Counted from the stretch's first letter, positions 4,266 to 24,000 are shown. The stretch is 24,000 bases of DNA from Thermoleophilaceae bacterium (GCA_035639555.1 DASQXU010000259.1:557-24556), one strand, 5' to 3'. Numbers and translations are program-made. The notes: a model not told the origin generated them from the sequence alone.

Positions 4266-5851
4266 CTCGAACCGAGCGGGCGGAGCGCCGTCCGCCCCGA
4301 CCGTCGCCCGATGGCGAGCACCTCGACCCGGTTGGCGCCCGCCCGCAGGGCGCTCTCCGGCACGAGGACCGACGCCCACTCGGCGGGCGTCTCCGCCAGC
4401 TGCACCGTCACCCCGGTCCCGACGATCCGCCCGTTCACCGCCACCGCCACCGGGTGGCCACGGCCCGGCGGCCGGCCGACAACCCGCCCCTGCACATGGC
4501 AGGGGACGTAGCCGGAGGCAGGTCGAACCGCCCTCAGGTCGCGGCGCAGGAAGAGGTGCACCCGGACGCGCCCCGGACGCAGGAGGCGAAAGGCGGACAG
4601 CGGCTTGCCGACCAGCTCGCGGTGCGGCCCGATCGCGAACAGGCCGGGTCCGCGATCGCCGGAGCCGAACAGGCGCAGCTTCCGCGCGAGGGCGCGCGCC
4701 CTTCTGCGGGCGAGCCAGGCCGCGTCGACGACGTAGCGGCCGCCGACCGTGCCGAGCGCCGTCCCGATCCGGTGGTACACAGTCACCCGGGCGTGCCGCC
4801 CGGTCGGCCGCCGCCCCACCGGCATACCGTCCATCCGCCACCGCGGTCGCAGGTGGGCGAAGCGAGCGATGGTCGGGACCACGTCGACCGTCTCCACGTG
4901 CCGGTCGTCGATCCGGCCCCGGCGTTGCAGCGGCGCCTTCACGATCAGCGGCACCGGCGCTAGGTCCTGGATGTTGGCCAGAGTCACCGCGCGCCGGTTC
5001 GCTCCGCGGTGAAAGCCGATCCCGTGGTCGGCGGTGACCACGATCAGCGACTGCTCGTAGAGGCCGGTGCGGCGCAGGCGACGCAGCAGCTCGCCGAGCA
5101 GCCGATCGGCGAGCCCCGTCTGGAGCAGGTGGCGCTGGTAGGACTGGCGAACCAGGAACGGGTCGTTGAATCCGAGGTCGCTGTTCAGGCCCGGGATCAC
5201 CTCGGAGACGTGACGTCGGTACTGGTGCCCGGAGGGGAGGAACTCCCACGGAACGTGGGGCAGCAGCGTGTGCTTGAAGTAGAGCGTCGGGCCCGGGCGG
5301 GGTCGGATCGAGCGCACGTACGCCCGGAACCGCGCCGGGCGCTTCGAGCCGAGGTTGTGGAACGTGCGGTTCCCGATGGTGCGGGCGGCGGCGCGGGCCT
5401 GCGCCGGGCACAGCCGCGGCGGGCATAGGAGGGTGGCGTCCTCGGATACGTCGAGGCGGTAGCGGCCGCCGAACAGCGTGAACAGATTGTCGGGGTGGCC
5501 GGTGTAGTCGTGGGGCAGGACGCTTCGCGGGTAGCGGCCGTCGAGGATGGCGGGCACCGCGAGCGTGGTGCTGTCGTGCACCCCCGTCGCCCCGCGGTAC
5601 CAGGTGGCACCGCCCGCGAGCGACGCGAAGCTCGGATAGCGACGGCGGTCGATGCGTCCTCGCTCGTCCATCAGCGAGGTGAGCGGCAGCTCATCGAACA
5701 CCACGAGCACGACGGTCGGATGGCGCGGGGCGACCGTGCGCAGGTCCGGTACGGAGCGCCGGTCGAGCCGGGGGCTACCGGCGGAGGCCGCGACGAGGGC
5801 GAGCACGGCACAGGCGGCCGCTGTCCCGATGAGCGCTCGCGCGGTCAGCAC
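4262..5851 (-). CDS. exported alkaline-phosphatase-superfamily (sulfatase/phosphotransferase-like) protein
   Basis: 529-aa ORF with a GTG start. Signal-peptide-like N-terminus (ALIGTAAACAVLALVAASAG). VVVFDELP and IVVTADHG match the metal-ligand motifs of the sulfatase/alkaline-phosphatase fold, and HDSTTLAVP is a candidate nucleophile region. A C-terminal ~150 aa extra domain is present. The gene starts 22 nt after the bioD stop. Confidence 0.6.
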   Translation of the reverse strand: MLTARALIGTAAACAVLALVAASAGSPRLDRRSVPDLRTVAPRHPTVVLVVFDELPLTSLMDERGRIDRRRYPSFASLAGGATWYRGATGVHDSTTLAVPAILDGRYPRSVLPHDYTGHPDNLFTLFGGRYRLDVSEDATLLCPPRLCPAQARAAARTIGNRTFHNLGSKRPARFRAYVRSIRPRPGPTLYFKHTLLPHVPWEFLPSGHQYRRHVSEVIPGLNSDLGFNDPFLVRQSYQRHLLQTGLADRLLGELLRRLRRTGLYEQSLIVVTADHGIGFHRGANRRAVTLANIQDLAPVPLIVKAPLQRRGRIDDRHVETVDVVPTIARFAHLRPRWRMDGMPVGRRPTGRHARVTVYHRIGTALGTVGGRYVVDAAWLARRRARALARKLRLFGSGDRGPGLFAIGPHRELVGKPLSAFRLLRPGRVRVHLFLRRDLRAVRPASGYVPCHVQGRVVGRPPGRGHPVAVAVNGRIVGTGVTVQLAETPAEWASVLVPESALRAGANRVEVLAIGRRSGRTALRPLGSS

Positions 5852-11643: not shown

Positions 11644-12019
11644 CGGCGGGGCACCGCGGCCGCGGGGTGGCTCGCGGAGGGCCGGAACGGCCGCCCGCGA
11701 AGCCGTCGAGGGCGGTGTCCGAGGCGCCCCTCGCACGCGCGCCGCCCCGCTGCCTCGGCGCGGCGCCGGCGAGCGCCGGATCACCGCGGCCGGCGGCGTG
11801 CACAACCCTGCCCGCGTCCACCTCTAGGCGACGCGTGCGGGGTTGCTCACGATCTTCGTGACCAACCCCTGCTCGCGTCCGGCGCGATCGCGCCACGTGG
11901 GCCGGGTCTTGCACGCTTGGCCTGGACCGCGGGTGCGGCGTGCCGGAGGCCTGGGCTGCGCCCCCTGCCTTCCGCCGCCTGCATGACGACCGTCGCGCGA
12001 TTTCGACTTCCGGCCGCCG

Positions 12020-12676
12020 CTAGGCGATCACATTCCGCAGGACGCCGATCCCCTCGACCTCCAGCTCTACCACGTCCCCCGGCCGAAGCCAGCGGCCGTC
12101 GCCGTGCTCGAGGATGCAGCCGCGGCCGACCGTGCCCGACCCGAGCACGTCTCCGGCCTGGAGGCCGGACGTGTTGCGCGCTGCCTGGCTGAGGATCTGC
12201 TCCCACGACCAGTGCATCCCGCCGGTCCGTGAGTCGGTCCGCACCTCGCCGTTGACGCGCGCCAGCGCCCGCAGGTCGAGGTCCGCCGGCAGCTCCTCCG
12301 GCGACACGAGCTCCGGCCCGAGCGACGTCGCGAAGTCCTTGGCCTTGGCCGGACCGAGCCCGACCGCCATCTCGCGGGCTTGGAGGTCGCGGGCGGACCA
12401 GTCGTTCATGATCGTGAAGCCCTCCGGCCGTCCGCCGTCGCCGATGACGCAGGCCAGCTCGAGCTCGTAGTCGAGCATCTCGGTGTCGGCCGGCTTCGGC
12501 ACCGCATCGCCGTGGCCGTAGATGGCGGCCGGATTCGAGAAGTAGAACACCGGGAGCTCGTACCACGCGGGGGGCACCTCGAGGCCCCGGCTCGCGCGCG
12601 CGTTCCGGACGTGCTCCTCGAACGCCATGAAGTCGCGCACCGAGGGCGGCTGGCCGTCGGGGAACGGTCGCCTCAC
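12020..12676 (-). CDS. fumarylacetoacetate hydrolase (FAH) family protein, catalytic domain only
   Basis: Region RDFMAFEEHV...PPAWYELPVFYFSNPAAIYGHGDAV...DYELELACVIG...KDF... parallels the catalytic domain of fumarylacetoacetase. The track ORF start (12892) lies inside lrp in another frame and reads as junk. GTG at 12676 overlaps the lrp TGA (GTGA). GTG 12640 and ATG 12628 are alternatives. Confidence 0.78.
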   Translation of the reverse strand: MRRPFPDGQPPSVRDFMAFEEHVRNARASRGLEVPPAWYELPVFYFSNPAAIYGHGDAVPKPADTEMLDYELELACVIGDGGRPEGFTIMNDWSARDLQAREMAVGLGPAKAKDFATSLGPELVSPEELPADLDLRALARVNGEVRTDSRTGGMHWSWEQILSQAARNTSGLQAGDVLGSGTVGRGCILEHGDGRWLRPGDVVELEVEGIGVLRNVIA

Positions 12677-13122
12677 CGCTGGAAGAGGGTAGAGAGCACG
12701 ACCTCGGTCACCGTCCGGGTGATGCCCTCCTGGGCGCGGATGCGCTCGAGCGCGGTCTCGAGGTCCTTGGTGTCCTCGGCCATCACGTGGAGCAAGGCAC
12801 TCGCCTCCCCCGCGACCGTGTGGGCCGACACCACGCCCGGCTCGCGCTCCACCGCGCGCTTGATCGCCTCTCCGGGCATGCGACCGTCGCAATAGAGGTC
12901 CACGAAGGCCTCGGCGTGCCAGCCGTAGGCGAGCGGGTCGACGATCGTCGTGTAGCCGCGGATCACCCCGTCCCGCTCCAGGCGGTCGACGCGCCGCTTC
13001 ACCGCCGGGGCCGAGAGGTGGACGTGCTCGCCGATGTCCTTGAACGAGCGCCGGGCGTTCTGGCGAAGCAGCGCAACGATCCTACGGTCGATGTCGTCGA
13101 GAAGTGGCTGAACTGTCGCCAT
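12673..13122 (-). CDS. Lrp/AsnC family transcriptional regulator
   Basis: 149 aa. N-terminal HTH (LDDIDRRIVALLRQNARRSFKDIGEHVHLSAPAVKRRVDRLERDGVI) followed by a C-terminal RAM/AsnC ligand domain. Divergent from hppD, a known arrangement for tyrosine-catabolism regulators in actinomycetes. Confidence 0.9.
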   Translation of the reverse strand: MATVQPLLDDIDRRIVALLRQNARRSFKDIGEHVHLSAPAVKRRVDRLERDGVIRGYTTIVDPLAYGWHAEAFVDLYCDGRMPGEAIKRAVEREPGVVSAHTVAGEASALLHVMAEDTKDLETALERIRAQEGITRTVTEVVLSTLFQR

Positions 13123-13195
13123 GTTGCAAGAAAGCGGCGTTGAAACGTCGCCCTGATGCGGGAAACATTACATCGATAGCGAAGGGAGGAGGAGG
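13123..13195. promoter_or_regulatory. divergent lrp/asnC - hppD control region
   Basis: 73-bp gap, visibly less G+C-rich than its surroundings (ATGTTGCAAGAAAG..., GGAAACATTACATCGATAG). Carries the strong hppD SD GAAGGGAGGAGGAGG. Individual promoter and operator elements were not resolved. Confidence 0.4.
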
Positions 13196-14329
13196 ATGGC
13201 GACAGAGCAGCTTCAGACCCACCCGCGCTCCGAGGCCGCGGACCGCATGCCGCTCCACGGCATCGACCACCTGGAGCTGTACGTCGGCAACGCCACCCAG
13301 GCCGCCTACTACTTCACCCGCGCCTTCGGCTTCACCGAGACGGCGTACGCCGGGCTCGAGACCGGTCGGCGCGACCGGGTCTCGAGAGTGCTCGAGCAAG
13401 GGCGCATACGGCTCGTGCTCACCGGCACGCTGAGGGGGGACGACGAGATCGCCGAGCATCACCGCCGGCACGGAGACGGGGTGCACAAGGTCGCCCTGTC
13501 GGTTCCGGACGCCGAGGCCGCGTACTGGCACGCGGTCGACCACGGCGCTCGCGGTGTGGAGCTGCCGCGCTGGGTCGAGGACGAGCACGGGCGGGTGCAG
13601 CTCGCGTCAGTCGCCACCTACGGAGAGACGCTTCACCTCTTCGTTCAGCGGGAGGACTACCGCGGCCCATTCCTGCCCGGCTTCGAAGCTCGCCAGCCGG
13701 CCGAGCAAGATCTCGACCGCTTGCTGCTGGTCGGCATCGACCACGTGGTCGGCAACGTCGAGCTCGGCCATATGGAGGAGTGGGTCTCCTACTACGAGCG
13801 TGTCTTCGGCATGACCGAGATGATCCACTTCTCGGACGAGGCGATCTCGACCGAGTACTCGGCGCTGATGTCGAAGGTGGTCACCGACGGCTCGGGACGG
13901 GTCAAGTTCCCGATCAACGAGCCGGCCGAGGGCAAGCGCAAGTCACAGATCGAGGAGTACCTCGAGTTCTACCGCGGGGCCGGCGTGCAGCACGTGGCGC
14001 TCTCCACGCTGGACATCGTGGACGCCGTCTCCGAGCTCCGTAGCCGAGGGGTCGAGTTCCTGCCCATCCCCGAGAGCTACTACGAGGAGGTCCCGGCGCG
14101 GATCGGCGAGATCGACCAGGACTTGGCCGACCTCCGCCGGCTCGGCATCCTGGCGGACCGCGACGACGAGGGCTACCTGCTGCAGATCTTCACCAAGCCG
14201 CTCGGCGACCGGCCCACGGTGTTCTTCGAGGTGATCGAGCGCCACGGCTCCCGCGGCTTCGGCGAGGGCAACTTCAAGGCGCTCTTCGAGGCGCTCGAGC
14301 GCGAGCAGGAGAGGAGGGGGAACCTATGA
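13196..14329 (+). CDS. hppD: 4-hydroxyphenylpyruvate dioxygenase
   Basis: 377 aa. Two-domain vicinal-oxygen-chelate layout: GIDHLELYVGNA..., GIDHVVGNVELG.... C-terminal motifs: GVQHVAL, YLLQIFTKP, FFEVIERHG and GFGEGNFKALFEA. Confidence 0.9.
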   Translation: MATEQLQTHPRSEAADRMPLHGIDHLELYVGNATQAAYYFTRAFGFTETAYAGLETGRRDRVSRVLEQGRIRLVLTGTLRGDDEIAEHHRRHGDGVHKVALSVPDAEAAYWHAVDHGARGVELPRWVEDEHGRVQLASVATYGETLHLFVQREDYRGPFLPGFEARQPAEQDLDRLLLVGIDHVVGNVELGHMEEWVSYYERVFGMTEMIHFSDEAISTEYSALMSKVVTDGSGRVKFPINEPAEGKRKSQIEEYLEFYRGAGVQHVALSTLDIVDAVSELRSRGVEFLPIPESYYEEVPARIGEIDQDLADLRRLGILADRDDEGYLLQIFTKPLGDRPTVFFEVIERHGSRGFGEGNFKALFEALEREQERRGNL

Positions 14330-14372
14330 CGGCACCGGGTGCCTCGCCTCTCGTGCGCCCGCCGGCGTTAGC

Positions 14373-14399
14373 GCGGGTCCGGCCGGGGGCGGGTCCGGC
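14373..14399 (+). repeat. tandem direct repeat GCGGGTCCGGC (x2, 16-nt period) upstream of hmgA
   Basis: Exact 11-mers at 14373-14383 and 14389-14399, 31-57 nt upstream of the hmgA ATG. Function unknown. Confidence 0.5.
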
Positions 14400-14429
14400 G
14401 CGCGGACTCCACCCCAAGGAGGGTTGGCG

Positions 14430-15635
14430 ATGAGATACGAGGTTCGGGGCGAGGTCCCCAAGAAGCGACACACGGTCTTCCGCGACGACGGGCGCCTCCT
14501 CGTCGAGGAGGTGATGGGCTTCGAAGGTTTCTCCGGGAACGAGTCGATTCTCTACCACCTCCAGACGCCGTGCCGCGTCAAGGAGCTCGGCGAGTTCGCC
14601 CCGATCGAGCGAGAGGAGTGGGTGCCGGAGGCGCACGCCTGGCATCACCTGGAGACCGGCGGCGTCGAGCCCGCCGGCGACCCCGTCCACGGCCGTCGTC
14701 TCCTCATGTGGAACGAAGACGTGGAGATCGCCCTGTGCCGGCCGACCGAGGAGCAGCGGTTCTTCTTCCGTGACGGCGAGGGCGACGAGGTGATCTTCGT
14801 CCATCGGGGGTCGGGCGAGATCGAGACGACCTTCGGCACCCTCAGCTACCGCGAGCACGACTACGTCGTCATCCCGCGCGGTACGACCTATCGCTTTCGC
14901 CCGGAGGGAGAGCAGCTGTGGCTCACCTTCTTCACGCCGGGCGAGATCGAGACGCCCGACCGCTATCGAAACCGCTACGGGCAGCTACTGGAGCACGCCC
15001 CCTACTCGCAGCGTGACTTCCGCCCGCCCGGGGAGCTGGTCACCCACCGCGAGCAAGGCGAGTTCGAGCTCGTTGTCCGGGCCCGCGACGGCTACCAGCG
15101 CTATCTGCTCGATTACCACCCGCTCGACGTGGTCGGGTGGGACGGCTACGTCTACCCCTACACGTTCAACATCGACGACTTCGAGCCGGTCAGCGGGCGC
15201 ATCCACATGCCGCCCCCGGTCCACCAGACCTTCCAGGGCCCGAACTTCGTGATCTGCTCGTTCTGTCCGCGCCAGCTCGACTTCGATCCGGACGCCGTCC
15301 CGATCCCCTACAACCACTCCAACCTGCAGTCGGAGGAGATGATCTATTACGTCGCCGGCCACTTCGGGTCGCGGAAGGGCGTCGGCGTCGGGTCGATCAC
15401 CCTGCACCCCTCGGGGCTGCCCCACGGCCCGCAGCCGGGACTGTACGAGAAGTCACTCGGGAAGAAGTGGACGGACGAGCTGGCGGTGATGTGCGACACC
15501 TTCCGCCCGCTTCGCCTCAGCGCACTGGCGGGCGAGCTGGACGACGGGCGCTACGCGCTCAGCTGGTACGAGGCTTCCGCGGATGCGGAACACGCCGGGG
15601 CGGGAAGCCCGGCGGGGGTCACGAGCCACCTCTAG
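14430..15635 (+). CDS. hmgA: homogentisate 1,2-dioxygenase (short bacterial type)
   Basis: ~401 aa. ATG 14430 lies 7 nt after AAGGAGGG (14416-14423), so the track TTG at 14424 is less likely. Cupin-type protein with ...GFSGNESILYH..., FRPPGE, HMPPPVHQTF and HPSGLPHGPQPG. Sits directly downstream of hppD. Confidence 0.87.
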   Translation: MRYEVRGEVPKKRHTVFRDDGRLLVEEVMGFEGFSGNESILYHLQTPCRVKELGEFAPIEREEWVPEAHAWHHLETGGVEPAGDPVHGRRLLMWNEDVEIALCRPTEEQRFFFRDGEGDEVIFVHRGSGEIETTFGTLSYREHDYVVIPRGTTYRFRPEGEQLWLTFFTPGEIETPDRYRNRYGQLLEHAPYSQRDFRPPGELVTHREQGEFELVVRARDGYQRYLLDYHPLDVVGWDGYVYPYTFNIDDFEPVSGRIHMPPPVHQTFQGPNFVICSFCPRQLDFDPDAVPIPYNHSNLQSEEMIYYVAGHFGSRKGVGVGSITLHPSGLPHGPQPGLYEKSLGKKWTDELAVMCDTFRPLRLSALAGELDDGRYALSWYEASADAEHAGAGSPAGVTSHL

Positions 15636-15694
15636 GGAGGGAGTGGCGTACACCCCCGCGGGGACCCGCCCCGGCCCCTGCGCTCCGGACGAGC

Positions 15695-16522
15695 TCAGAA
15701 GTACATGCCGCTGAACTGGCCGCCGGTCACGCTCAGCACCTGTCCGTGGACGTAGTTCGACCATGGTGAGCAGAGGAAGAAGACGCCGCCGGCCGCCTCC
15801 TCGACCTTCGCAGGCCGGCCCAGGGGGATGAGTAGGTACGCCATGGAGCGCATCTGCTCGGGGATGCCGAGCTCGATCTCCTGGCCATCCCTCCGGAACG
15901 TTCCACCCTCTTCCTTGCGCGCGGTGAGGCGGGTCTCGACGAACCCGAACGCCACGGCGTTCACGTTGATCTTGAACTGGCCCCACTCCTTGGCCAGCGT
16001 CTTGGTCAGCCCCACCACCCCGGACTTCGCGGCCGAGTAGTTGGCCTGACCGGCGTTGCCCATCATGCCCGAGATCGAGCTGACGTTTACGACCTTCCGA
16101 AACACCTCGCGGCCCTCGGCCGCCTCCCGCTTGGCCGGCTCGCGCAGGTAGGGAGCGGCCGCCCGCAGCACCCGGAAGGGCACGATCGTGTGGACGTCGA
16201 GCATCGCCTGGAACTGCTCGTCGGACATGTTGTGCACGGTGCCGTCCCAGGTGTAGCCGGCGTTGTTGACGATGATGTCGAGCTGCCCGAACTCGTCCAC
16301 CGCCTTGGTGACGAGCTGCTCGCAGACTCCCTCCTTGGTGAGATCCCCGCCGAACACGGCGGTCTCGCCCTCGATCTCGCTCGCGGTCTGCTCGGCGACG
16401 TCGGCGTCGAGGTCGTTGATCAACACTCGGGCCCCGTGCTCGGCGAGGAGCTCGGCCGTCGCTCGGCCGATGCCCCGCGCAGAGCCCGTGACGATCGCCG
16501 CCCTACCGTCGAGTACTCCCAC
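15695..16522 (-). CDS. short-chain dehydrogenase/reductase (FabG-like, classical SDR)
   Basis: 275 aa with a GTG start, 6 nt after the SD AGGAGA. Motifs: TGSARGIG (TGxxxGxG), NNAG, and the catalytic S...YSAAK. Confidence 0.85.
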   Translation of the reverse strand: MGVLDGRAAIVTGSARGIGRATAELLAEHGARVLINDLDADVAEQTASEIEGETAVFGGDLTKEGVCEQLVTKAVDEFGQLDIIVNNAGYTWDGTVHNMSDEQFQAMLDVHTIVPFRVLRAAAPYLREPAKREAAEGREVFRKVVNVSSISGMMGNAGQANYSAAKSGVVGLTKTLAKEWGQFKINVNAVAFGFVETRLTARKEEGGTFRRDGQEIELGIPEQMRSMAYLLIPLGRPAKVEEAAGGVFFLCSPWSNYVHGQVLSVTGGQFSGMYF

Positions 16523-16621
16523 AAGAACTCTCCTTGTTCGCTTGGTTCGAGGCCGGCGGAGCCGGCCGGCTCGGCATCATGACGGGAGGGCCGGCTCGGA
16601 TGGCCGCCACCGGGCCGGTGG

Positions 16622-17086
16622 CTAGTGGTGCCCGTGGACCAGGGCGTGTCCCTTCCCGCGCCGGATGAGGTGGCGATTCGCGGCGAAGGCGGGGCCGAAG
16701 GCGACCCCGAAGCCCCCGGCGATGCTCGCCCAGAAGAGCAAGTCCCCGAGGCCCGCGTCCATAGCTCCGGGCACGGCCAGCACGAATGCGTTGTCGATCG
16801 CCTCCATGATGGCGATCGAGACCGTCTCCGACGCGACGGCGATCGGGATCACCTCGGTAAACGAAAGCCCGGCGCGGAGCAGGGGCAGCGCGGTCAGGGC
16901 ATAGCCGAAGAAGAAGGCGAGCCCGACCGCTGCCCCGGTGGTGGCGAGATTGGCCCAGCCGAGTGCGGTCCCCAGGGCCATACCGCTCACCTCGCCGATC
17001 GCGCATCCGGTCAGGCAGTGGGCGGTGGCCATCAGTGCGAGGCGGTTGAGCGGACCCGCCCCGTGGGCTGTCGCCCCGTGCCCCAT
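16622..17086 (-). CDS. small polytopic membrane protein with HCxxGCxxGE motif (DUF4396-like)
   Basis: 154 aa with about 4 hydrophobic segments. N-terminal TAHCLTGCAIGEVSG and a His-rich C-terminus (HALVHGHH). The ATG lies 6 nt after the NmrA-like stop. The family name is from memory of the motif and was not verified. Confidence 0.6.
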   Translation of the reverse strand: MGHGATAHGAGPLNRLALMATAHCLTGCAIGEVSGMALGTALGWANLATTGAAVGLAFFFGYALTALPLLRAGLSFTEVIPIAVASETVSIAIMEAIDNAFVLAVPGAMDAGLGDLLFWASIAGGFGVAFGPAFAANRHLIRRGKGHALVHGHH

Positions 17087-17092
17087 CCTGGC

Positions 17093-17989
17093 TCAGGAAG
17101 CCACCGCGGGCCGCCGAGGCACGAGCTGGCCAAACCGTGAGCGCTTCGAGCGCGCCCAGTCCGCGTAGCGGCGCCACCCGACCTCCGGGTAGCGGCGGCG
17201 CAGGGCCGAGATGTCGACATCGTGGCCCACGCGCTCGAGCCAATCGAACAGGGCTCGAGGGCCGGATGGAAGCTCCTCCGGCGCGATCCGCTGCGCCTCG
17301 AGATCGAGGCCGACGGCGCTCGCGACGGCGGCGGCCGCCTGCTCGGCGGTCAGCTCGTCCGAGGCGACTCTGATCCGCTGACCGGCGAGCTCATCCCCCC
17401 GCTCGATGGCCAGAGCGGCAAGGGCGGCGAGGTCGGCGATCGCCACCTGCTGCAGCGGCATGTCGACGGGGACCGGACTGGGGAGGATGCCGCGGCTGAG
17501 GGCGGGCACGTTCCACGGGTTGAACAGGTTCTCCATGAAGTAGACCGGGGCGAGGATGGTGTATCCGACGCCGACCGACCGAATGTGCTCCTCGACCCTC
17601 GCCTTCACCCGAAAGAGCGGCAACGGGCTGTCGTGCGCGGCTCCGTCGCCCGAGCTGTACACGAGGTGCGCAACTCCGGCCGCGGCCGCGCCGTCGGCCA
17701 CGTTTCGGCCGTGGCGTAGCTCACCATCCGGCCCCGCCTGGTGCACCGTGCCGGTCGCGAAGAGAGCGTCGGCGCCGGCTGCCGCGGTCTCGATGCTCGC
17801 GGGGTCCTCGAAATCGCCGAACACCAGATCGACTCCCAGGCCGCCCAGCAGCGCTGCGGCGGGCGAGCTCGGGTCGCGGGTCATCGCCCGGACCGAGTGC
17901 CCGCGGGCGAGCAGGATCTCGACGATCACCCCGAGCCGCCCGGTCGCCCCTGCGACCACCACCGTCTTCGGCCGGGCCTCAGTGGGCAT
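17093..17989 (-). CDS. NmrA-like / atypical SDR NAD(P)-binding protein
   Basis: 298 aa. N-terminal Rossmann fingerprint VVVAGATGRLG followed by an NmrA-like body. The start overlaps the permease stop by 11 nt (ATGCCCACTGA). Confidence 0.75.
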   Translation of the reverse strand: MPTEARPKTVVVAGATGRLGVIVEILLARGHSVRAMTRDPSSPAAALLGGLGVDLVFGDFEDPASIETAAAGADALFATGTVHQAGPDGELRHGRNVADGAAAAGVAHLVYSSGDGAAHDSPLPLFRVKARVEEHIRSVGVGYTILAPVYFMENLFNPWNVPALSRGILPSPVPVDMPLQQVAIADLAALAALAIERGDELAGQRIRVASDELTAEQAAAAVASAVGLDLEAQRIAPEELPSGPRALFDWLERVGHDVDISALRRRYPEVGWRRYADWARSKRSRFGQLVPRRPAVAS

Positions 17990-19247
17990 GGGTGGCCTGC
18001 CGTGCCCGGGCGGGGCGGTGGCGATAGCGGTCCGGGTCGGCCTCGAACGCGTGGAGGCAGTGCTCGGAGCAGAAGTGATAGGTCTGGCCGGCCAGTTCCT
18101 TGTGGATCGCCCTCGCCCGGTCGACCTTCATGCCGCAGACCGGATCGGTGGCTCCGCGGCGGATCGTCGGGTAGAGGAGGGCGGCGAAGACGAACGACGC
18201 GACGACGTTCAGGAACAGCTTGTAGTTGACGGTCACCGACCCGAAGACGTCGGCGCGCGACGGGCGAGCGCCCGACGGGATCAGCCCGAGACCTCCGAAC
18301 AGGGCGTCGATGATCAGGGCGCTCACGACCATGGTCACGAACATCAGCGCCGTGATCCTGAGCGCGAACCCGAAGCCGTAGTACTTCCGGTAGGCGACGA
18401 GGATCGGCAGGACGATCAGGTCGGCGAACAGGAATGAGATGACGCCGCCGAACGAGATCCCGCCCGACCACAGCACGGCGGCGAGGGGCACGTTGCCGAT
18501 CGAGCAGACGAAGCTGAGCACGGCGATGACCGGGCCGACGAGGACGTTCTCGAGCGTGCGGAGCACCGGAGGCGCGTCGGTGACGAACAGGGCACTCCAG
18601 AAGTCGTTGCCGAGCAGTCCGATGAAGCCGGCGAGGAAGAAGCCGATGGCGATCTCCTTCCAGAGCATCTGCCAGTCGCCGCGGAAGTTGTGCGCCACGT
18701 CGAACCAGGCGTCGCCACTCGTCAGGCGCCGACGCCAGCCGAGGCCCTCCGAGACGGCGGCGTGATGCTCATGGCCGCTGGCCGCCTCCTGTGCGTGGCG
18801 ACGCGCGCGCTCCTCGAGCCGTGGCGAGACGAAAGCCCGCAGCAGGAGCGACATCAGGACAATCAGGAGGATCCCGCCGACGTACTCGGCGAGCGTGAAC
18901 TGCCAGCCGATCAGCACCCAGAGCACGAGGCCGAGCTCCCAGACCAGGTTGGTCGAGGCGAACTGGAAGGCGAGCGCCGAGGCGGCGGAGGCGCCCTTCT
19001 GGAACAGCGACTTGGCGATCGCGATCGCGGCATACGAGCACGACGAGGAGGCCGCACCGAGGCCGGTCGCTTTGGCCACGGGCCCGAACCCTCCGCCCGA
19101 CAGCGCGCTCTCGATCCGGCGCCGCGGCACCCAGGCCTGCACGATCGCCGAGATCGCGAAGCCGAGGACCAGCGCCCACCAGACCTCGTATGCCATGAGC
19201 AGGGATTGCTCGAAGCCCTCCCCGACGGTGCTCACTACATCGGCCAT
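17979..19247 (-). CDS. COG0701/ArsP-like (UPF0718) permease fused to a C-terminal YHS/TRASH metal-binding domain
   Basis: 422 aa and polytopic. Two repeat-associated Cys motifs (GAASSSCSYAAIA and FVCSIGNVPLAAVLW) and a His-rich loop (GHEHH). The C-terminal DPVCGMKVD...YHFCSEHCLHAF is a YHS/TRASH signature, and the tail ends ATHAH. Confidence 0.75.
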   Translation of the reverse strand: MADVVSTVGEGFEQSLLMAYEVWWALVLGFAISAIVQAWVPRRRIESALSGGGFGPVAKATGLGAASSSCSYAAIAIAKSLFQKGASAASALAFQFASTNLVWELGLVLWVLIGWQFTLAEYVGGILLIVLMSLLLRAFVSPRLEERARRHAQEAASGHEHHAAVSEGLGWRRRLTSGDAWFDVAHNFRGDWQMLWKEIAIGFFLAGFIGLLGNDFWSALFVTDAPPVLRTLENVLVGPVIAVLSFVCSIGNVPLAAVLWSGGISFGGVISFLFADLIVLPILVAYRKYYGFGFALRITALMFVTMVVSALIIDALFGGLGLIPSGARPSRADVFGSVTVNYKLFLNVVASFVFAALLYPTIRRGATDPVCGMKVDRARAIHKELAGQTYHFCSEHCLHAFEADPDRYRHRPARARQATHAH

Positions 19248-19260
19248 CGGTTGCGAGGAT

Positions 19261-19277
19261 ATACCCTACCCGGGTAT
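19261..19277. promoter_or_regulatory. CsoR-type operator (ATACCC-N5-GGGTAT)
   Basis: ATACCCTACCCGGGTAT lies in the 39-bp gap between the permease ATG (19247) and the csoR ATG (19287). It closely resembles known G/C-tract pseudo-palindromic CsoR boxes such as the B. subtilis copZA-type TACCCTAC..GGGGGTA. It overlaps the -10-like TATAGT (19275-19280). Confidence 0.65.
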
Positions 19278-19286
19278 AGTCTGCAC

Positions 19287-19586
19287 ATGGCAGACGAGGG
19301 ATCGGTCACCCGCGGCTACTCGGCGACGAAGGCCGAGCTACTGAACCGGCTGGCCCGGGTCGAGGGGCAGGTGCGCGGGGTCTCCCGCATGGTCGAGGAG
19401 GACCGCTACTGCATCGACGTCCTGACCCAGATCGCCGCGGCACAGGCGGCACTCGACAAGATCGCTCTCGGCCTCCTCCACGACCACGCCCGCCACTGCA
19501 TGCTCGGCGAGGGTCAGGCGCCCGAAGACCCACGTGACCAGGTCGACGAGCTGATGGGCGCGGTCGGCAGGCTGGTCCGCAGGTAA
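19287..19586 (+). CDS. csoR: CsoR/RcnR-family metal-sensing repressor with Cu(I)-type x-C-H-C ligand fingerprint
   Basis: 99 aa. Motifs: RLARVEGQVRGVSRMVEEDRYCIDVLTQIAA... and LLHDHARHC, with His and Cys spaced H-x3-C. The track ORF start at 18690 is rejected. The ATG lies exactly 6 nt after TATAGT with no SD, so the transcript is probably leaderless. Confidence 0.88.
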   Translation: MADEGSVTRGYSATKAELLNRLARVEGQVRGVSRMVEEDRYCIDVLTQIAAAQAALDKIALGLLHDHARHCMLGEGQAPEDPRDQVDELMGAVGRLVRR

Positions 19587-19616
19587 GCATTGCTCAGTTT
19601 TTGTTAAGCGATGCTT
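19585..19616 (+). terminator. A/U-rich hairpin overlapping the csoR stop codon (possible weak terminator)
   Basis: AAGCATTGC (19585-19593) pairs with GCGATGCTT (19608-19616), giving 9 bp including one G-U. The loop is 14 nt and is followed by only T then G. It sits in an unusually A+T-rich 90-bp island. Confidence 0.3.
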
Positions 19617-19674
19617 TGAAGGCGCCGGTCTTGGGAATACCGGCCGTCGGAAAAACGCAAGTGGGGAGGGTTCT

Positions 19675-21180
19675 ATGCGGATGCTTCGCAGGCTCGGAGG
19701 CCTGGTCGTGTGCGTCGGTGCGGCGCTCTTGGCTGCGTCACCCGCGGGGGCGTCGGTCACCACTCCAGTGCAGGTGACCGGCAGCTCGCCCTTCGTGCCG
19801 GGGTGCGCCGGTCCGGGCCACGACCCGACAGGAAGGCTGTACGAGGAGGGGGAGGTCGAGCCGTGGGTGGCGGTCGACCCCGCCGACCCGAGCAACATCG
19901 CCGGCAACTGGCAGCAGGACCGCTGGAGCGACGGCGGCTCGCACGGCCTCGTGGCCAGCGGCTCGACGACGGGCTCGTTCGGGCCCGAGACCTTCGCGGA
20001 CTTCAGCCGCTGCCCGCTGTTCGCGCACTACGGCAATCCGGATGCGCAGGAGCCGGGCAGGGAGTTCGATCGCGCCAGTGACCCGTGGGTCTCGTGGGGC
20101 AGCGGGCACCGGCTGCACCAGATCGCGCTAACGCTCAGCCAGCCGGACTTCGGCCTCGGGTTCAACTCCGGGATTCTCGCCTCCTACTCCGACGACTTCG
20201 GGGCCCACTGGTCGCACCCCCAGGTCATCAAGCAGGATCAGGGCGGCAACAACCTCAACGACAAGGAGTCGATCACCGGCGACCCGGCCAGCGGCTACGT
20301 GTACGCGATCTGGGACCGCCTGGTGGTGGCGAACAGCCACGCGAACCTCCACGCCGTCGAGAACGCCATCGGCTACCGCGGGCCCACGTGGTTCGCGTCG
20401 AGCGCCAACAACGGCCAGAGCTGGTCGCCCGCGCGCAAGATCTACGACCCGGGTGAGAACAACCAGACGATCGCCAATCAGATCGCGGTGGAGCCGGACG
20501 GGACGCTCCTGGACGTGTTCATCTTGATCAACAACTTCAAGAACGCGCACGGGACTCGGGGCTTGAACGTCGCTGTGATGCGCTCGTCCGACCACGGCCT
20601 GACCTGGTCGAGGCCGGTGATCGTCAGCAAGCTGGCGGACAAGACCGTGGTGACGCCGGGCGACAACCTGCCGGTGCGGACCGGGGACATCATCCCCGAC
20701 ATCGCGATCGATCGCTCCTCGGGCGCGGCGTACGTGGTCTGGCAGGACGCCCGCTCGGGAACGCCCGCGATCTATCTCGCGAAGTCGACCGACGGCGGCG
20801 TCCACTGGAGCGCCCCCCAGAAGGTGAGCGACTCGCCGGCCGGCGTCCAGGCGTTCACCGGATCGGTCGACGTGAACAGCAACGGGGCGGTCGGAGTGAC
20901 GTTCTACGACTTCCGCAACGACACGTCCAGCACCGCGACGGCGTTGACCGACTACTGGTTCCGCGCATCGACCGACGGCGGCGCGAGTTGGGGCAACTCG
21001 CAGCGGGTGACGCCGACATCGTTCGACATGAAGACGGCGCCGGTGGCCCGTGGCTTCTTCGTGGGCGACTACGAGGGGCTCGACCACGCGGGGAGCACGT
21101 TCAAGGTCTTCTTCGTGCAGACGGATAGCACGCCCGGGACCAGCCCGACCGACGTGTTCTCGGCGAACGCGACTCCGTAG
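19675..21180 (+). CDS. secreted BNR/Asp-box repeat protein (sialidase-like beta-propeller fold)
   Basis: 501 aa, with the SD GGGGAGGG 5 nt upstream. Signal peptide MRMLRRLGGLVVCVGAALLAASPAGA. Five Asp-boxes (SxDxGxxW): SDDFGAHW, SANNGQSW, SSDHGLTW, STDGGVHW and STDGGASW. Confidence 0.8.
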   Translation: MRMLRRLGGLVVCVGAALLAASPAGASVTTPVQVTGSSPFVPGCAGPGHDPTGRLYEEGEVEPWVAVDPADPSNIAGNWQQDRWSDGGSHGLVASGSTTGSFGPETFADFSRCPLFAHYGNPDAQEPGREFDRASDPWVSWGSGHRLHQIALTLSQPDFGLGFNSGILASYSDDFGAHWSHPQVIKQDQGGNNLNDKESITGDPASGYVYAIWDRLVVANSHANLHAVENAIGYRGPTWFASSANNGQSWSPARKIYDPGENNQTIANQIAVEPDGTLLDVFILINNFKNAHGTRGLNVAVMRSSDHGLTWSRPVIVSKLADKTVVTPGDNLPVRTGDIIPDIAIDRSSGAAYVVWQDARSGTPAIYLAKSTDGGVHWSAPQKVSDSPAGVQAFTGSVDVNSNGAVGVTFYDFRNDTSSTATALTDYWFRASTDGGASWGNSQRVTPTSFDMKTAPVARGFFVGDYEGLDHAGSTFKVFFVQTDSTPGTSPTDVFSANATP

Positions 21181-22123: not shown

Positions 22124-24000
22124 CTAGCGGGCCACCATCACTTCGGCGACCTGGCTCGCCCAGCGAGTCATTCCGAGCTCGCCGTACTCCTCGCCGGCGG
22201 ACGCCAGTAGCGCCCGGGCGCGCTCACTGTCGCCACCCCTAGCCAAGAGCATGCTCCCGTACCCGTGCCGGGTGTGAGCTACCCATGGGCGCGCCCCCAT
22301 CGCGGCGTTGTGTGCCAAGGCCGCCTCGAAGTGGCGCGCGGCGTCATCCCAGCGCGCGAGCGTCGCCGCGAGTACCCCGAGCGGCCTCGAGACGGAACCG
22401 GTCGCGAGCTCGTCGGCGTTCGCCGCGTTGAGGTGGGCGAACGGGGCGAGAAGGTCGTACAGGACCGTGGCGGCATGGAGGTCGTGGAGCTCGTGCGCGG
22501 TGTCCGCGAGGAAGCCGAGCGAGAAGAGGAACTCGTTGTCTCGCTGGATCGCGGCGAAATCGTCGGGCGCGATTTGATGAAGAAGGTCGCGAGCCCGGTC
22601 GCGGTGCCCGAGTTCGGCGTGAACGCACGACAACGCGCACCTGAAGACCGGCCGGGTCGGGAAGTCCGCGACGGCGCGTTCGATCAGCTCTTCGATCTCG
22701 GCCAGGTCGCCAGTCTCCCTTCGGAGGAGGAACAGCTGGAGTCGATGCGAGAGAACGGCGTCGCGGCGCTGGGCGCGCTCCCCAAGCCTCAAGGCGGTCT
22801 CGATCAGCGGCTCGGCGTCGGTGAACCTGCCATGGAGAAGCGCGACGACCGCGCGTATCGCCGCTGTCATCCACAGCTGAGCCGGCTGGCGAAGCACGGC
22901 TGCCCGCTCGGCGGCGATCTCGAGCTCCGCCTCTGCATCGATCATCCGACCGAGCTCCATATGGGCGATCACGCGGTAGATTCGCCCTTCGATGGCGCGC
23001 TCGTCGTCCGACACCTGCTCCGCGAGCGCCACGATCTCGTCGGCCACCGTGAGGCGGTCCTCGGGGTTCTCCGGCCACAGCACGGCGCCGTAGCGACCGG
23101 CGAGGACGTAGGCCCGCGCGGCCGGGTCGGCCAAGCTTCGCGCGATTCCCACCGCTTGGGCGCTGAGCGACGCCCGCCGTTCGCGCGAGGGATGATCGCG
23201 AAGCGCACCAGCCAGACGAGCCATGACCTTGGCCCGAAGGTCGGGGACGTCGGCGGGCAGTGAGACGAGTGCCTCCTCGAGCAGCGGGATGAGGTGCGCA
23301 TCCGTGTACGCACGCGACCACACGAACCTGCCCCCGTAGCCGAGGGCCGCCCTGGCGAGCTCGAGCGACAGGCCGGCTCGCCTGGCCACGTCCGCGGCCT
23401 GAAGGAAGGTTGCTCGGGCGCCCGTCTCGTCCCCCGCTCGCGCCGCCGCGTCACCGAGCGCGACGAGCAGCTCGCAGCGCTCGTCGTCCGCAGCCGGCGC
23501 CGCGATGTCCAGCGCGGCAAGCGCGAGCCGGTAGAGGCGCACGGCCTCCTCATAGGCGAGCAGCTGCCCGGCGCGGCGACCTGCACGCCGCGCATACTCG
23601 ACCGCCTTGCCGGGCTCGCCTGCCGGCAGGGCCTCGTAGAAGTGGTGCGCGAGCTCGGCGAGGTGGGGGTCTGGGTCGCGCGCATAGAAGGACTCGAGGA
23701 TCTCGCCGGCCCGCCTGTGGGCCTCGCGGCGCTGGGCCGCGGTGAGGCTCCCGTAGAGCGTGTCCCGGACGAGGGCATGGGAGAAGCGAACGCGGTCGAC
23801 GGCAGACGACGGCGTGAGCACCCGTGCCGTGATCGCCTCGTCCAGGGTCTCGAGAACGGCGCTCTCCTCCATGCCGCTGACCGCGGCGAGCTCCTTCACC
23901 GGGAACTCCCGACCCAGAATCGAAGCGCCCCGAAGCAGGGCTCGGCACTCCGGCGGAAGGCGGTCCAACCGCTGGCTGATCACTTCGGTGACCGTGTCCG
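22124..24000 (-). CDS. large ATPase/TPR signal-transduction protein (AAA-TPR, LuxR-associated/COG3899-like type), C-terminal part only
   Basis: The reading frame stays open to the window edge (...DTVTE-V-ISQRLDRLP...). It contains the post-ATPase helical region RLDRLPPECRALLRGASILGREF... followed by ~500 aa of TPR-like Ala/Leu/Arg-rich helical repeats. No C-terminal HTH is seen. The N-terminal domains lie outside the window. Confidence 0.65.
   Translation of the reverse strand, partial: DTVTEVISQRLDRLPPECRALLRGASILGREFPVKELAAVSGMEESAVLETLDEAITARVLTPSSAVDRVRFSHALVRDTLYGSLTAAQRREAHRRAGEILESFYARDPDPHLAELAHHFYEALPAGEPGKAVEYARRAGRRAGQLLAYEEAVRLYRLALAALDIAAPAADDERCELLVALGDAAARAGDETGARATFLQAADVARRAGLSLELARAALGYGGRFVWSRAYTDAHLIPLLEEALVSLPADVPDLRAKVMARLAGALRDHPSRERRASLSAQAVGIARSLADPAARAYVLAGRYGAVLWPENPEDRLTVADEIVALAEQVSDDERAIEGRIYRVIAHMELGRMIDAEAELEIAAERAAVLRQPAQLWMTAAIRAVVALLHGRFTDAEPLIETALRLGERAQRRDAVLSHRLQLFLLRRETGDLAEIEELIERAVADFPTRPVFRCALSCVHAELGHRDRARDLLHQIAPDDFAAIQRDNEFLFSLGFLADTAHELHDLHAATVLYDLLAPFAHLNAANADELATGSVSRPLGVLAATLARWDDAARHFEAALAHNAAMGARPWVAHTRHGYGSMLLARGGDSERARALLASAGEEYGELGMTRWASQVAEVMVAR

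Follow-up and report, generated by a model that had tools for sequence, protein, structure and literature searches.

A csoR gene and a divergent permease-YHS, NmrA-like and DUF4396 operon around a type-2 CsoR operator in a Thermoleophilaceae bacterium: a candidate copper-handling module

Gene content of the locus

We analysed a 24,000-nucleotide (nt) stretch of DNA from a Thermoleophilaceae bacterium (GCA_035639555.1, DASQXU010000259.1:557-24556), hereafter the window, which has a G+C content of 71%, and focused on a divergent group of genes at 16622-19586. The reading of open reading frames (ORFs) across the window gave four ORFs in this interval: a csoR regulator gene and, on the opposite strand, genes for a permease with a fused YHS domain, an NmrA-like protein and a DUF4396 membrane protein. 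We propose that the three opposite-strand genes form a Cu(I)-derepressed operon that would encode a secondary, thiolate-lined Cu(I) exporter and two accessory proteins, a reading that we consider probable. The features of the locus are the following (coordinates in the window; aa, amino acids; bp, base pairs):

16622-17086, minus strand: DUF4396 membrane protein, 154 aa (PF14342)
17087-17092: gap of 6 nt between the NmrA-like and DUF4396 genes
17093-17989, minus strand: NmrA-like protein, 298 aa (PF05368)
17979-17989: overlap of 11 nt between the permease and NmrA-like genes
17979-19247, minus strand: permease with fused YHS domain, 422 aa (PF03773 and PF04945)
18018-18149, minus strand: YHS domain, permease residues 367-410 (PF04945, E 2.1e-15)
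19248-19286: divergent gap of 39 bp between csoR and the permease gene
19251-19280, plus strand: csoR promoter-like site, TTGCGA-18-TATAGT
19261-19277: type-2 CsoR operator in the divergent gap
19287-19586, plus strand: csoR, 99 aa (PF02583)

The start of the NmrA-like gene overlaps the stop of the permease gene, and this start-stop overlap, together with the short gap that follows the NmrA-like gene, indicates co-translation of the permease, NmrA-like and DUF4396 genes. No terminator-like site was found inside 16400-19750. We also found no HMA (MxCxxC), CPC or DKTGT motif in any ORF of at least 45 aa in the window, so that no copA or copZ is present within the 24 kb, and a canonical cop operon (CopA P1B ATPase plus CopZ) is not encoded there; this verdict covers the window, the rest of the genome being outside our view. 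An earlier reading of the same DNA from its sequence alone (hereafter the sequence-only reading) had given the same four ORFs, the same gaps and overlap and the palindrome ATACCC-N5-GGGTAT, and all of these were confirmed, as were the protein motifs that it quoted, including RYCIDV and HDHARHC of CsoR, and, within the window, its statement that neither CopA nor CopZ is encoded beside csoR.

The regulator and its operator

The csoR product was assigned to PF02583 (E 2.7e-29; 101.8 bits against a Pfam cut-off of 22.8), and its best match in the PDB was the CsoR of Streptomyces lividans (4ADZ, E 2e-22). In that alignment, RYCID (with Cys42) and H67-A-R-H-C71 of the window CsoR fell on YCID and HLRHC of 4ADZ, which we take to be the motifs holding the Cu(I) ligands. 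The predicted ligands are Cys42, His67 and Cys71; Tyr41 precedes Cys42, and the x-C-H-C Cu(I) set is complete. Residues 21-24 (RLAR) match the DNA-binding RLxR motif (PMC3902906). The best NCBIfam match was RicR (NF052430), with 95.6 bits against a cut-off of 175, and the window regulator is therefore not a RicR orthologue. The YC(I)(D/E) and H-x3-C motifs were kept in 59 of the 60 CsoRs that adjoin related permeases. These features support a Cu(I)-type CsoR, for which Cu(I)-dependent release from DNA is predicted.

The divergent gap contains the sequence ATACCCTACCCGGGTAT, in which the arms ATACCC and GGGTAT stand around TACCC (TAC-N9-GTA). This was the sole exact match in the window; when up to two mismatches were allowed, we recovered 2 matches against 0.17 expected, and none of 100 shuffles reached 2. 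The type-2 operator consensus of streptomycetes, ATATACCCCTNAGGGGTATAT (TAC-N9-GTA), was defined by isothermal titration calorimetry and operator mutants (PMC3902906), and ATACCCTACCCGGGTAT matches it, with the G/C tract and the TAC/GTA inverted repeat located at the promoter of csoR itself. Both the Cu(I)-type ligand set and the CsoR-like box put forward by the sequence-only reading thus agree with an experimentally characterised regulator and operator.

The consensus scan recovered one csoR promoter-like site (against 0.2 expected), and the operator lies between and over its hexamers. The -10 hexamer ends 6 nt before the csoR ATG, so the csoR transcript is probably leaderless. On the opposite strand, the other operator arm appears to supply a TANNNT hexamer (TATCCT) 8 nt before the permease ATG. 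A single bound repressor would then block both divergent, probably leaderless, promoters, and we regard it as very likely that Cu(I) releases CsoR from this single shared operator.

The window regulator resembles the CsoR of S. lividans (SLI4375) in its ligand motifs, its RLxR motif and its TAC-N9-GTA operator. The S. lividans protein controls its own gene through a site at that gene's promoter, and the window box is likewise placed at the csoR promoter; its targets, however, are two copZA operons and csoR, whereas the target in view here is the permease-YHS/NmrA/DUF4396 operon.

The permease with a fused YHS domain

The permease matched PF03773 (ArsP_1, E 4.9e-60) over residues 18-313 of its 422 residues. 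Its translation contains the motifs SSSCSYAA, SFVCSIGN, GHEHH and, in the YHS domain, DPVCGMKV...HFCSEHC. In the permease alignment (A1), Cys70 (SSSCSYAA), Cys248 (SFVCS[IV]GNVP) and the GHxHH loop at residues 158-162 were invariant, with one Cys per membrane repeat and no CxC motif. Asp368, Cys371, Cys393 and Cys397 of the YHS domain were all invariant as well, one Asp and three Cys being the ligand set proposed for this domain, which serves as the copper sensor in an adenylyl cyclase of M. phlei (PMC4626032). We recovered more than 8000 permease homologues; the best 120 were 73-100% identical, and 119 of them had the ArsP_1 plus YHS architecture. Three homologues of 476-489 aa (P0015, P0099 and P0112) carried a second tandem YHS/TRASH domain at the C-terminus (A1 columns 440-500). 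No solved structure was found in the permease family.

The organoarsenical exporter ArsP, after which ArsP_1 is named, is marked by a vicinal cysteine pair in a transmembrane (TM) helix and by an ars operon context, and the window permease has neither. It shares with ArsP (TC 2.A.119) the PF03773 domain, the two-repeat membrane architecture and functionally placed cysteines. ArsP is encoded in ars operons under ArsR, whereas the window permease is found in a CsoR/cop context and has a fused YHS domain, and no ars genes were detected in the window.

A second point of comparison is SO_0444 of Shewanella oneidensis (COG0701), which is needed for Cu and Zn tolerance, as shown with complementation (PMC3219624), and which is induced by Cu and Cd in Nitratiruptor (PMC10092412). 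SO_0444 and the window permease match the same ArsP_1/COG0701 superfamily models at the domain level. They differ in control and architecture: SO_0444 is under a MerR/ZntR-type activator, whereas the window permease stands behind a CsoR box and has the YHS fusion. Members of the SO_0444 family can also carry a UxC/CxC motif (PMC13188914), in contrast to the single Cys per repeat of the window permease.

Genomic distribution of the permease and its neighbours

In a scan of one genome per species we found at least 576 places encoding relatives of the permease, nearly all of them in Solirubrobacterales, Gaiellales and other Thermoleophilia, and we examined the best 80 loci. The csoR gene was located directly upstream of the permease in 56 of the 78 loci with enough flanking sequence (51 divergent and 5 co-directional), and in 60 out of 80 loci, including some without an adjacent csoR, a TACCC-N5-GGGTA box with up to 2 mismatches stood upstream, no more than 200 nt from the permease start. 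The consensus box derived from 56 loci was aTACCCC-n3-GGGGTAT. Homologous permeases were also found in metal islands of Paraburkholderia and in haloarchaeal plasmids.

A search of the 80 loci for a conserved downstream partner of the permease was negative: 44 downstream genes were co-directional, and these were heterogeneous (e.g. methyltransferase, 6; CDF, 3; glyoxalase, 3). DUF4396 was present in 9 of the 80 loci, directly downstream of the permease in 6 of them. The conserved core is csoR plus permease-YHS, and the gene set is a variable accretion around that core, not a fixed unit. The neighbours in other genomes included copA, HMA chaperone, multicopper oxidase and DUF305 genes, and no ars or cst genes were seen among them. 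In locus L180 (2244-3692), a gene for tyrosinase, a copper enzyme, was found directly beside the csoR of a csoR/permease-YHS/NmrA module. A P-type ATPase was encoded within 6 kb of the permease in just 3 of the 80 loci, but a P1B ATPase shares one operon with the same genes in L023, L183, L088 and many DUF4396 loci; the suggestion of the sequence-only reading that the module needs no ATPase is thus unproven.

These neighbours also bear on the possibility that a different thiophilic species is the real signal or substrate, for example Ag(I), Zn/Cd, reactive sulfur (as for CstR) or an organoarsenical, with copper being one inducer or none. Members of the CsoR family sense Ni/Co, formaldehyde or persulfide, and this adds to the organoarsenical origin of the ArsP_1 name; a methyltransferase dependent on S-adenosylmethionine (SAM) follows permease-DUF4396 in several loci (it accounts for the 6 methyltransferases among the 44 downstream genes; L085 is an example), and SO_0444 protects against Zn (PMC3219624) and responds to Cd (PMC10092412). 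The window CsoR, on the other hand, has the full x-C-H-C set with Tyr41 before Cys42, like 59 of the 60 partner CsoRs, its operator belongs to the type that serves copper-sensing CsoRs (PMC3902906), and the neighbours elsewhere are copper genes and not ars or cst genes. We therefore consider another signal or substrate quite unlikely. A persulfide sensor of the CstR type was specifically rated unlikely, since the regulator keeps the His ligand and the neighbouring genes are copper genes.

The DUF4396 membrane protein

The DUF4396 protein (PF14342, E 7.9e-33) has four predicted TM helices and thousands of homologues, and its sequence contains HCLTGCAIGE and ends in ...GHALVHGHH. In the alignment of the family (A4), the invariant positions were His23-Cys24-x3-Cys28-x3-Glu32 in helix 1, Met94/Glu95/Asp98/Asn99 in helix 3, Asn137-Arg138, and His151, while His147 and His154 of the C-terminal tail were conserved in at least 90% of the sequences. 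The AlphaFold2 model was a confident four-helix membrane bundle (predicted local distance difference test, pLDDT, 85), and no PDB fold match to this model reached E 0.001.

We examined 80 metagenomic DUF4396 loci, only 59 of which had 400 nt of upstream flank. A CsoR box with at most 1 mismatch was present within 400 nt upstream in 33 of the 80 loci, against about 1 expected from base composition; csoR was found in 21 loci, copA in 14, and either of the two in 25. The usual gene orders in the metagenomes were copA-csoR-DUF4396, csoR-DUF4396 and copA-DUF4396 (L088 is an annotated example), and DUF4396 was also found alone or paired with a SAM methyltransferase. Judging from these gene contexts, DUF4396 is an independent, recurrent member of predicted CsoR regulons.

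A related arrangement, csoR-copZ-copA-DUF4396, is carried by pKRAD01 of Kineococcus radiotolerans. Together with the copA-csoR-DUF4396 operons of soil metagenomes, it shares with the window the DUF4396 family (53-67% identity) and the setting in a CsoR-controlled copper operon, but these operons include the canonical ATPase and chaperone and are without permease-YHS and NmrA. Two tandem exact boxes, GTACCCCCTGGGGGTAC, stand 27 bp apart just upstream of the pKRAD01 genes (L177:1019-1066). The searched literature on DUF4396 function and on Kineococcus copper proteomics contained nothing on these genes.

Three further observations concern this family. A SAM-dependent methyltransferase of about 215-226 aa (UbiE/Methyltransf_25 type) was repeatedly found after DUF4396, with or without the permease upstream (L085:5001-6191, L005:7273-8392, L007:7465-8584 and L015), a pairing that recalls that of ArsP and ArsM, by resemblance only. 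In L023 (3275-4627), DUF4396 carries a fused C-terminal extension of about 290 aa, whose YtkA-like match is borderline (E 1.7e-5; 25.8 bits, the cut-off being 25.9). The gene is the first in the operon DUF4396-csoR-permease-YHS-copA, and upstream of it lie a CsoR box (1 mismatch) and a second box-like palindrome. Finally, in L082 (1896-2359) DUF4396 was called as two ORFs of 63 and 101 aa, owing to a frameshift or an assembly error.

The NmrA-like protein

The third effector matched PF05368 (E 5.6e-41) and has the dinucleotide-binding motif GATGRLG at residues 14-20, which places it among the NmrA-like atypical short-chain dehydrogenases/reductases (SDRs). In alignment A5, G14, A15, T16, G17 and R18 were invariant, and L19 and G20 were conserved in at least 90% of the sequences. 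Arg34, Arg38, Lys129 and Tyr150 were also invariant in this NmrA-like subfamily, which has no conserved Cys. The invariant Lys129 and Tyr150 would fit either NmrA catalysis or a pure NAD(P)H-sensor role and do not discriminate between the two. The solved relatives comprise an NmrA-like 'monooxygenase' (5f5l, E 2.4e-56), the NADPH sensor HSCARG, triphenylmethane reductase and the oxidoreductase YtfG.

For a census from the NmrA side we took six orthologues (60-69% identical) that were picked solely for their long contigs. Each of the six lay either in the module or immediately behind a CsoR box. In P0254, P0302 and P0340, NmrA comes directly after permease-YHS, with stop and start overlapping, and in P0283 it comes after permease-copA. 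In L178 (position 4041) and L179 (position 3976), NmrA and DUF4396 diverge from each other, an exact CsoR box stands within or next to the short stretch between them, and neither NmrA/DUF4396 locus has a csoR nearby. A more distant orthologue (54% identical), in L023, is divergent from the DUF4396-csoR-permease-copA operon, and the box and box-like palindrome of that locus lie between them.

Related regulons and literature

The RicR regulon of Mycobacterium tuberculosis consists of ricR, mymT, lpqS, socAB, mmcO and the 'putative permease' gene Rv2963 (PMC3944814). RicR is a CsoR paralogue and, like the window CsoR, is associated with a palindromic motif before effectors that are not ATPases, a putative permease among them (PMC3944814). 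The view of the sequence-only reading that characterised CsoR regulons control an ATPase and CopZ is therefore too narrow.

On plasmid pJCM15296 of Mycolicibacterium aubagnense (L175:3281-6287), genes for a multicopper oxidase and an ArsP_1 permease diverge around a perfect box, ATATACCCCAATGGGGTATAT (4934-4954). That permease is 42% identical to the window permease over its full length and has no Pfam YHS match, and an MPT63-family gene and a heavy-metal ATPase gene are found near the pair. The locus looks like a plasmid-borne counterpart of RicR-regulon genes. Rv2963 itself may be an ArsP_1/PF03773 protein, to judge from its description as a permease and from this plasmid locus; the reviews consulted name no family for it.

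We found no description, in the searched literature, of CsoR together with a YHS permease or with NmrA, nor of the gene set as a unit. This agrees with the sequence-only reading, which knew of no such module; RicR/Rv2963 and SO_0444 are partial precedents.

Proposed mechanism

Sequence and comparison between genomes give the gene set, the type of sensor, the operator and the conserved link between each of the three effectors and CsoR boxes; from these we infer copper as the inducer, outward transport, the topology and the roles of DUF4396 and NmrA. At low copper, tetrameric CsoR would occupy the single TAC-N9-GTA operator; since this site overlaps the -10 region of each promoter, csoR and the permease-NmrA-DUF4396 operon would be repressed together. 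Binding of Cu(I) to Cys42/His67/Cys71 would release CsoR. The main effector would be a secondary transporter, one not powered by ATP, from the ArsP/COG0701 family, in which two pseudo-symmetric halves may each place one invariant Cys (Cys70 and Cys248) in the membrane path, while the putatively cytoplasmic YHS domain (Asp plus three Cys) and the GHxHH loop could collect Cu(I) or gate its entry; the permease would most likely move Cu(I) out of the cytoplasm. DUF4396 would be an independent four-helix protein that may bind Cu via the buried HCxxxCxxxE motif and serve either as a chaperone in the membrane or as an accessory exporter. The NmrA-like protein would be an NADPH-dependent accessory that may reduce Cu(II) or Cu-reactive quinones, or couple transport to NADPH status.

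Several observations weigh against this proposal, and they concern the permease and the NmrA-like gene. The AlphaFold model of the permease, obtained from 24 close sequences, was poor (pLDDT 61.6), and the cytoplasmic placement of the YHS domain and His loop is predicted only from the positive-inside rule. The permease scored 52.4 bits with the SO_0444 Cu/Zn efflux family (NF033936, cut-off 300) and 51 bits with SaoE (NF040736, cut-off 325), and with such low scores its kinship to the one member that has been tested genetically is no more than distant. The mutant with a transposon in Rv2963 was a little more copper-resistant, though not reproducibly, and hypervirulent (PMC3944814); this is opposite to what loss of an exporter predicts.

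The same mutant phenotype would fit a permease that imports copper or hands it to exported cuproenzymes, the operon then serving copper supply or envelope metallation, and so would the multicopper oxidase divergent from the permease in L175 and the tyrosinase beside csoR in L180. Such a role is unlikely in our view, because a CsoR-type repressor turns genes on at excess cytoplasmic Cu(I), when import would be counter-productive. A cytoplasmic location of the YHS domain, moreover, is suggested by the helix before it, which ends in RRG; mutants in SO_0444 are sensitive to Cu and Zn (PMC3219624), and the module often shares one operon with copA exporters.

As for the NmrA-like gene, an orthologue was present in 1 of the 80 permease loci and missing from 79. 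In the closest syntenic relatives (L081 and L082), which have the same flanking genes and permeases 87-89% identical to that of the window, the permease is followed by DUF4396 without NmrA. The difference is an indel of about 870 bp (window 17093-17989 against L081:4457-4516 and L082:1874-1896), and roughly ten codons from each end of NmrA still have counterparts in the L081 spacer, so that a loss in L081 and L082 is likelier than a gain in the window. In a near-identical assembly (L090; DUF4396 99% identical, same flanks), NmrA is split, apparently by a frameshift, into ORFs of 127 and 189 aa (L090:9099-9994), and the gene appears to be decaying in the clade of the window. Absent from nearly all loci, deleted in two close relatives and split in a third, it is not essential to the mechanism.

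The low count and the indel had raised the possibility that NmrA is a chance insertion or passenger, which was overturned by the contexts of the six sampled orthologues. On these comparisons, NmrA is a rare and dispensable accessory that would still be dedicated to the module. The three-gene module of the sequence-only reading accordingly stood in part: its link to copper and the participation of all three genes held, and each effector recurs behind CsoR boxes, but the genes are not a fixed unit, and of the associations that it had pointed to, the linkage of csoR and permease-YHS was borne out, whereas NmrA and DUF4396 are seldom found at permease loci.

The losses of NmrA, the split DUF4396 of L082, the low counts of both genes at permease loci and the heterogeneous downstream genes elsewhere would also agree with a functional unit of csoR and permease only, to which NmrA and DUF4396 were added as passengers. 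We consider this very unlikely, given that all six NmrA orthologues were in the module or directly behind a CsoR box, that 33 of the 80 DUF4396 loci have an upstream box against about 1 expected and 25 have csoR or copA, and that the 11-nt start-stop overlap and 6-nt gap indicate co-translation.

The proposed Cu(I) exporter with two accessory proteins can be extended to a single machine that exports copper independently of ATP and couples chemistry to the transport. NmrA would dock on the YHS/His region of the permease and reduce Cu(II) or a Cu-thiol/quinone adduct, or gate transport by NADPH, and DUF4396 would pass Cu(I) through its buried HCxxxCxxxE site. Taken jointly, we give these steps a small chance of being correct.

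Flanking genes and a second palindrome

According to the annotation of twin contigs, the module is flanked by a tyrosine-catabolism cluster and by genes for an SDR, a BNR protein and a 5'-3' exonuclease, none of them metal-related. The tyrosine/homogentisate catabolism cluster adjoins the module at about 12000-15650, with no copper link established, and includes the following genes (annotation from twin contigs L081 and L090):

13196-14329: HPPD-like glyoxalase-fold gene
14424-15635: homogentisate dioxygenase

The cluster also has genes for an FAA hydrolase and an AsnC-type regulator on the other side. A degenerate box-like palindrome, GTACCCGTGCCGGGTGT (2 mismatches), was found at 22259-22275, inside a large BTAD/AAA_16 regulator gene. 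It is conserved in L090 (4808) and L091 (1098), contigs with an identical DUF4396 protein, and is probably a chance match inside coding sequence.

Significance

Copper export from the bacterial cytoplasm is usually explained by P1B ATPases and CopZ chaperones. The gene set described here points to pump-independent copper handling, although independence from an ATPase is unproven. Thermoleophilia are a dominant but barely cultured soil group, and the CsoR operator before a secondary permease-YHS is found in at least several hundred of their species (with the box scored in the best 80 loci); if the permease exports Cu(I), copper tolerance could run on membrane potential rather than ATP. The locus also offers a first testable functional context for DUF4396, for a dedicated NmrA-like subfamily and for YHS-fused COG0701 permeases, and it gives a hint at the possible role of the RicR-regulated permease Rv2963, a putative ArsP_1 protein whose regulon contributes to virulence. 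If the three effectors did work as one machine, they would represent a new class of bacterial copper-resistance system and it would become clear what DUF4396, the YHS-fused COG0701 permeases and, by extension, the RicR-regulated permease of M. tuberculosis do.

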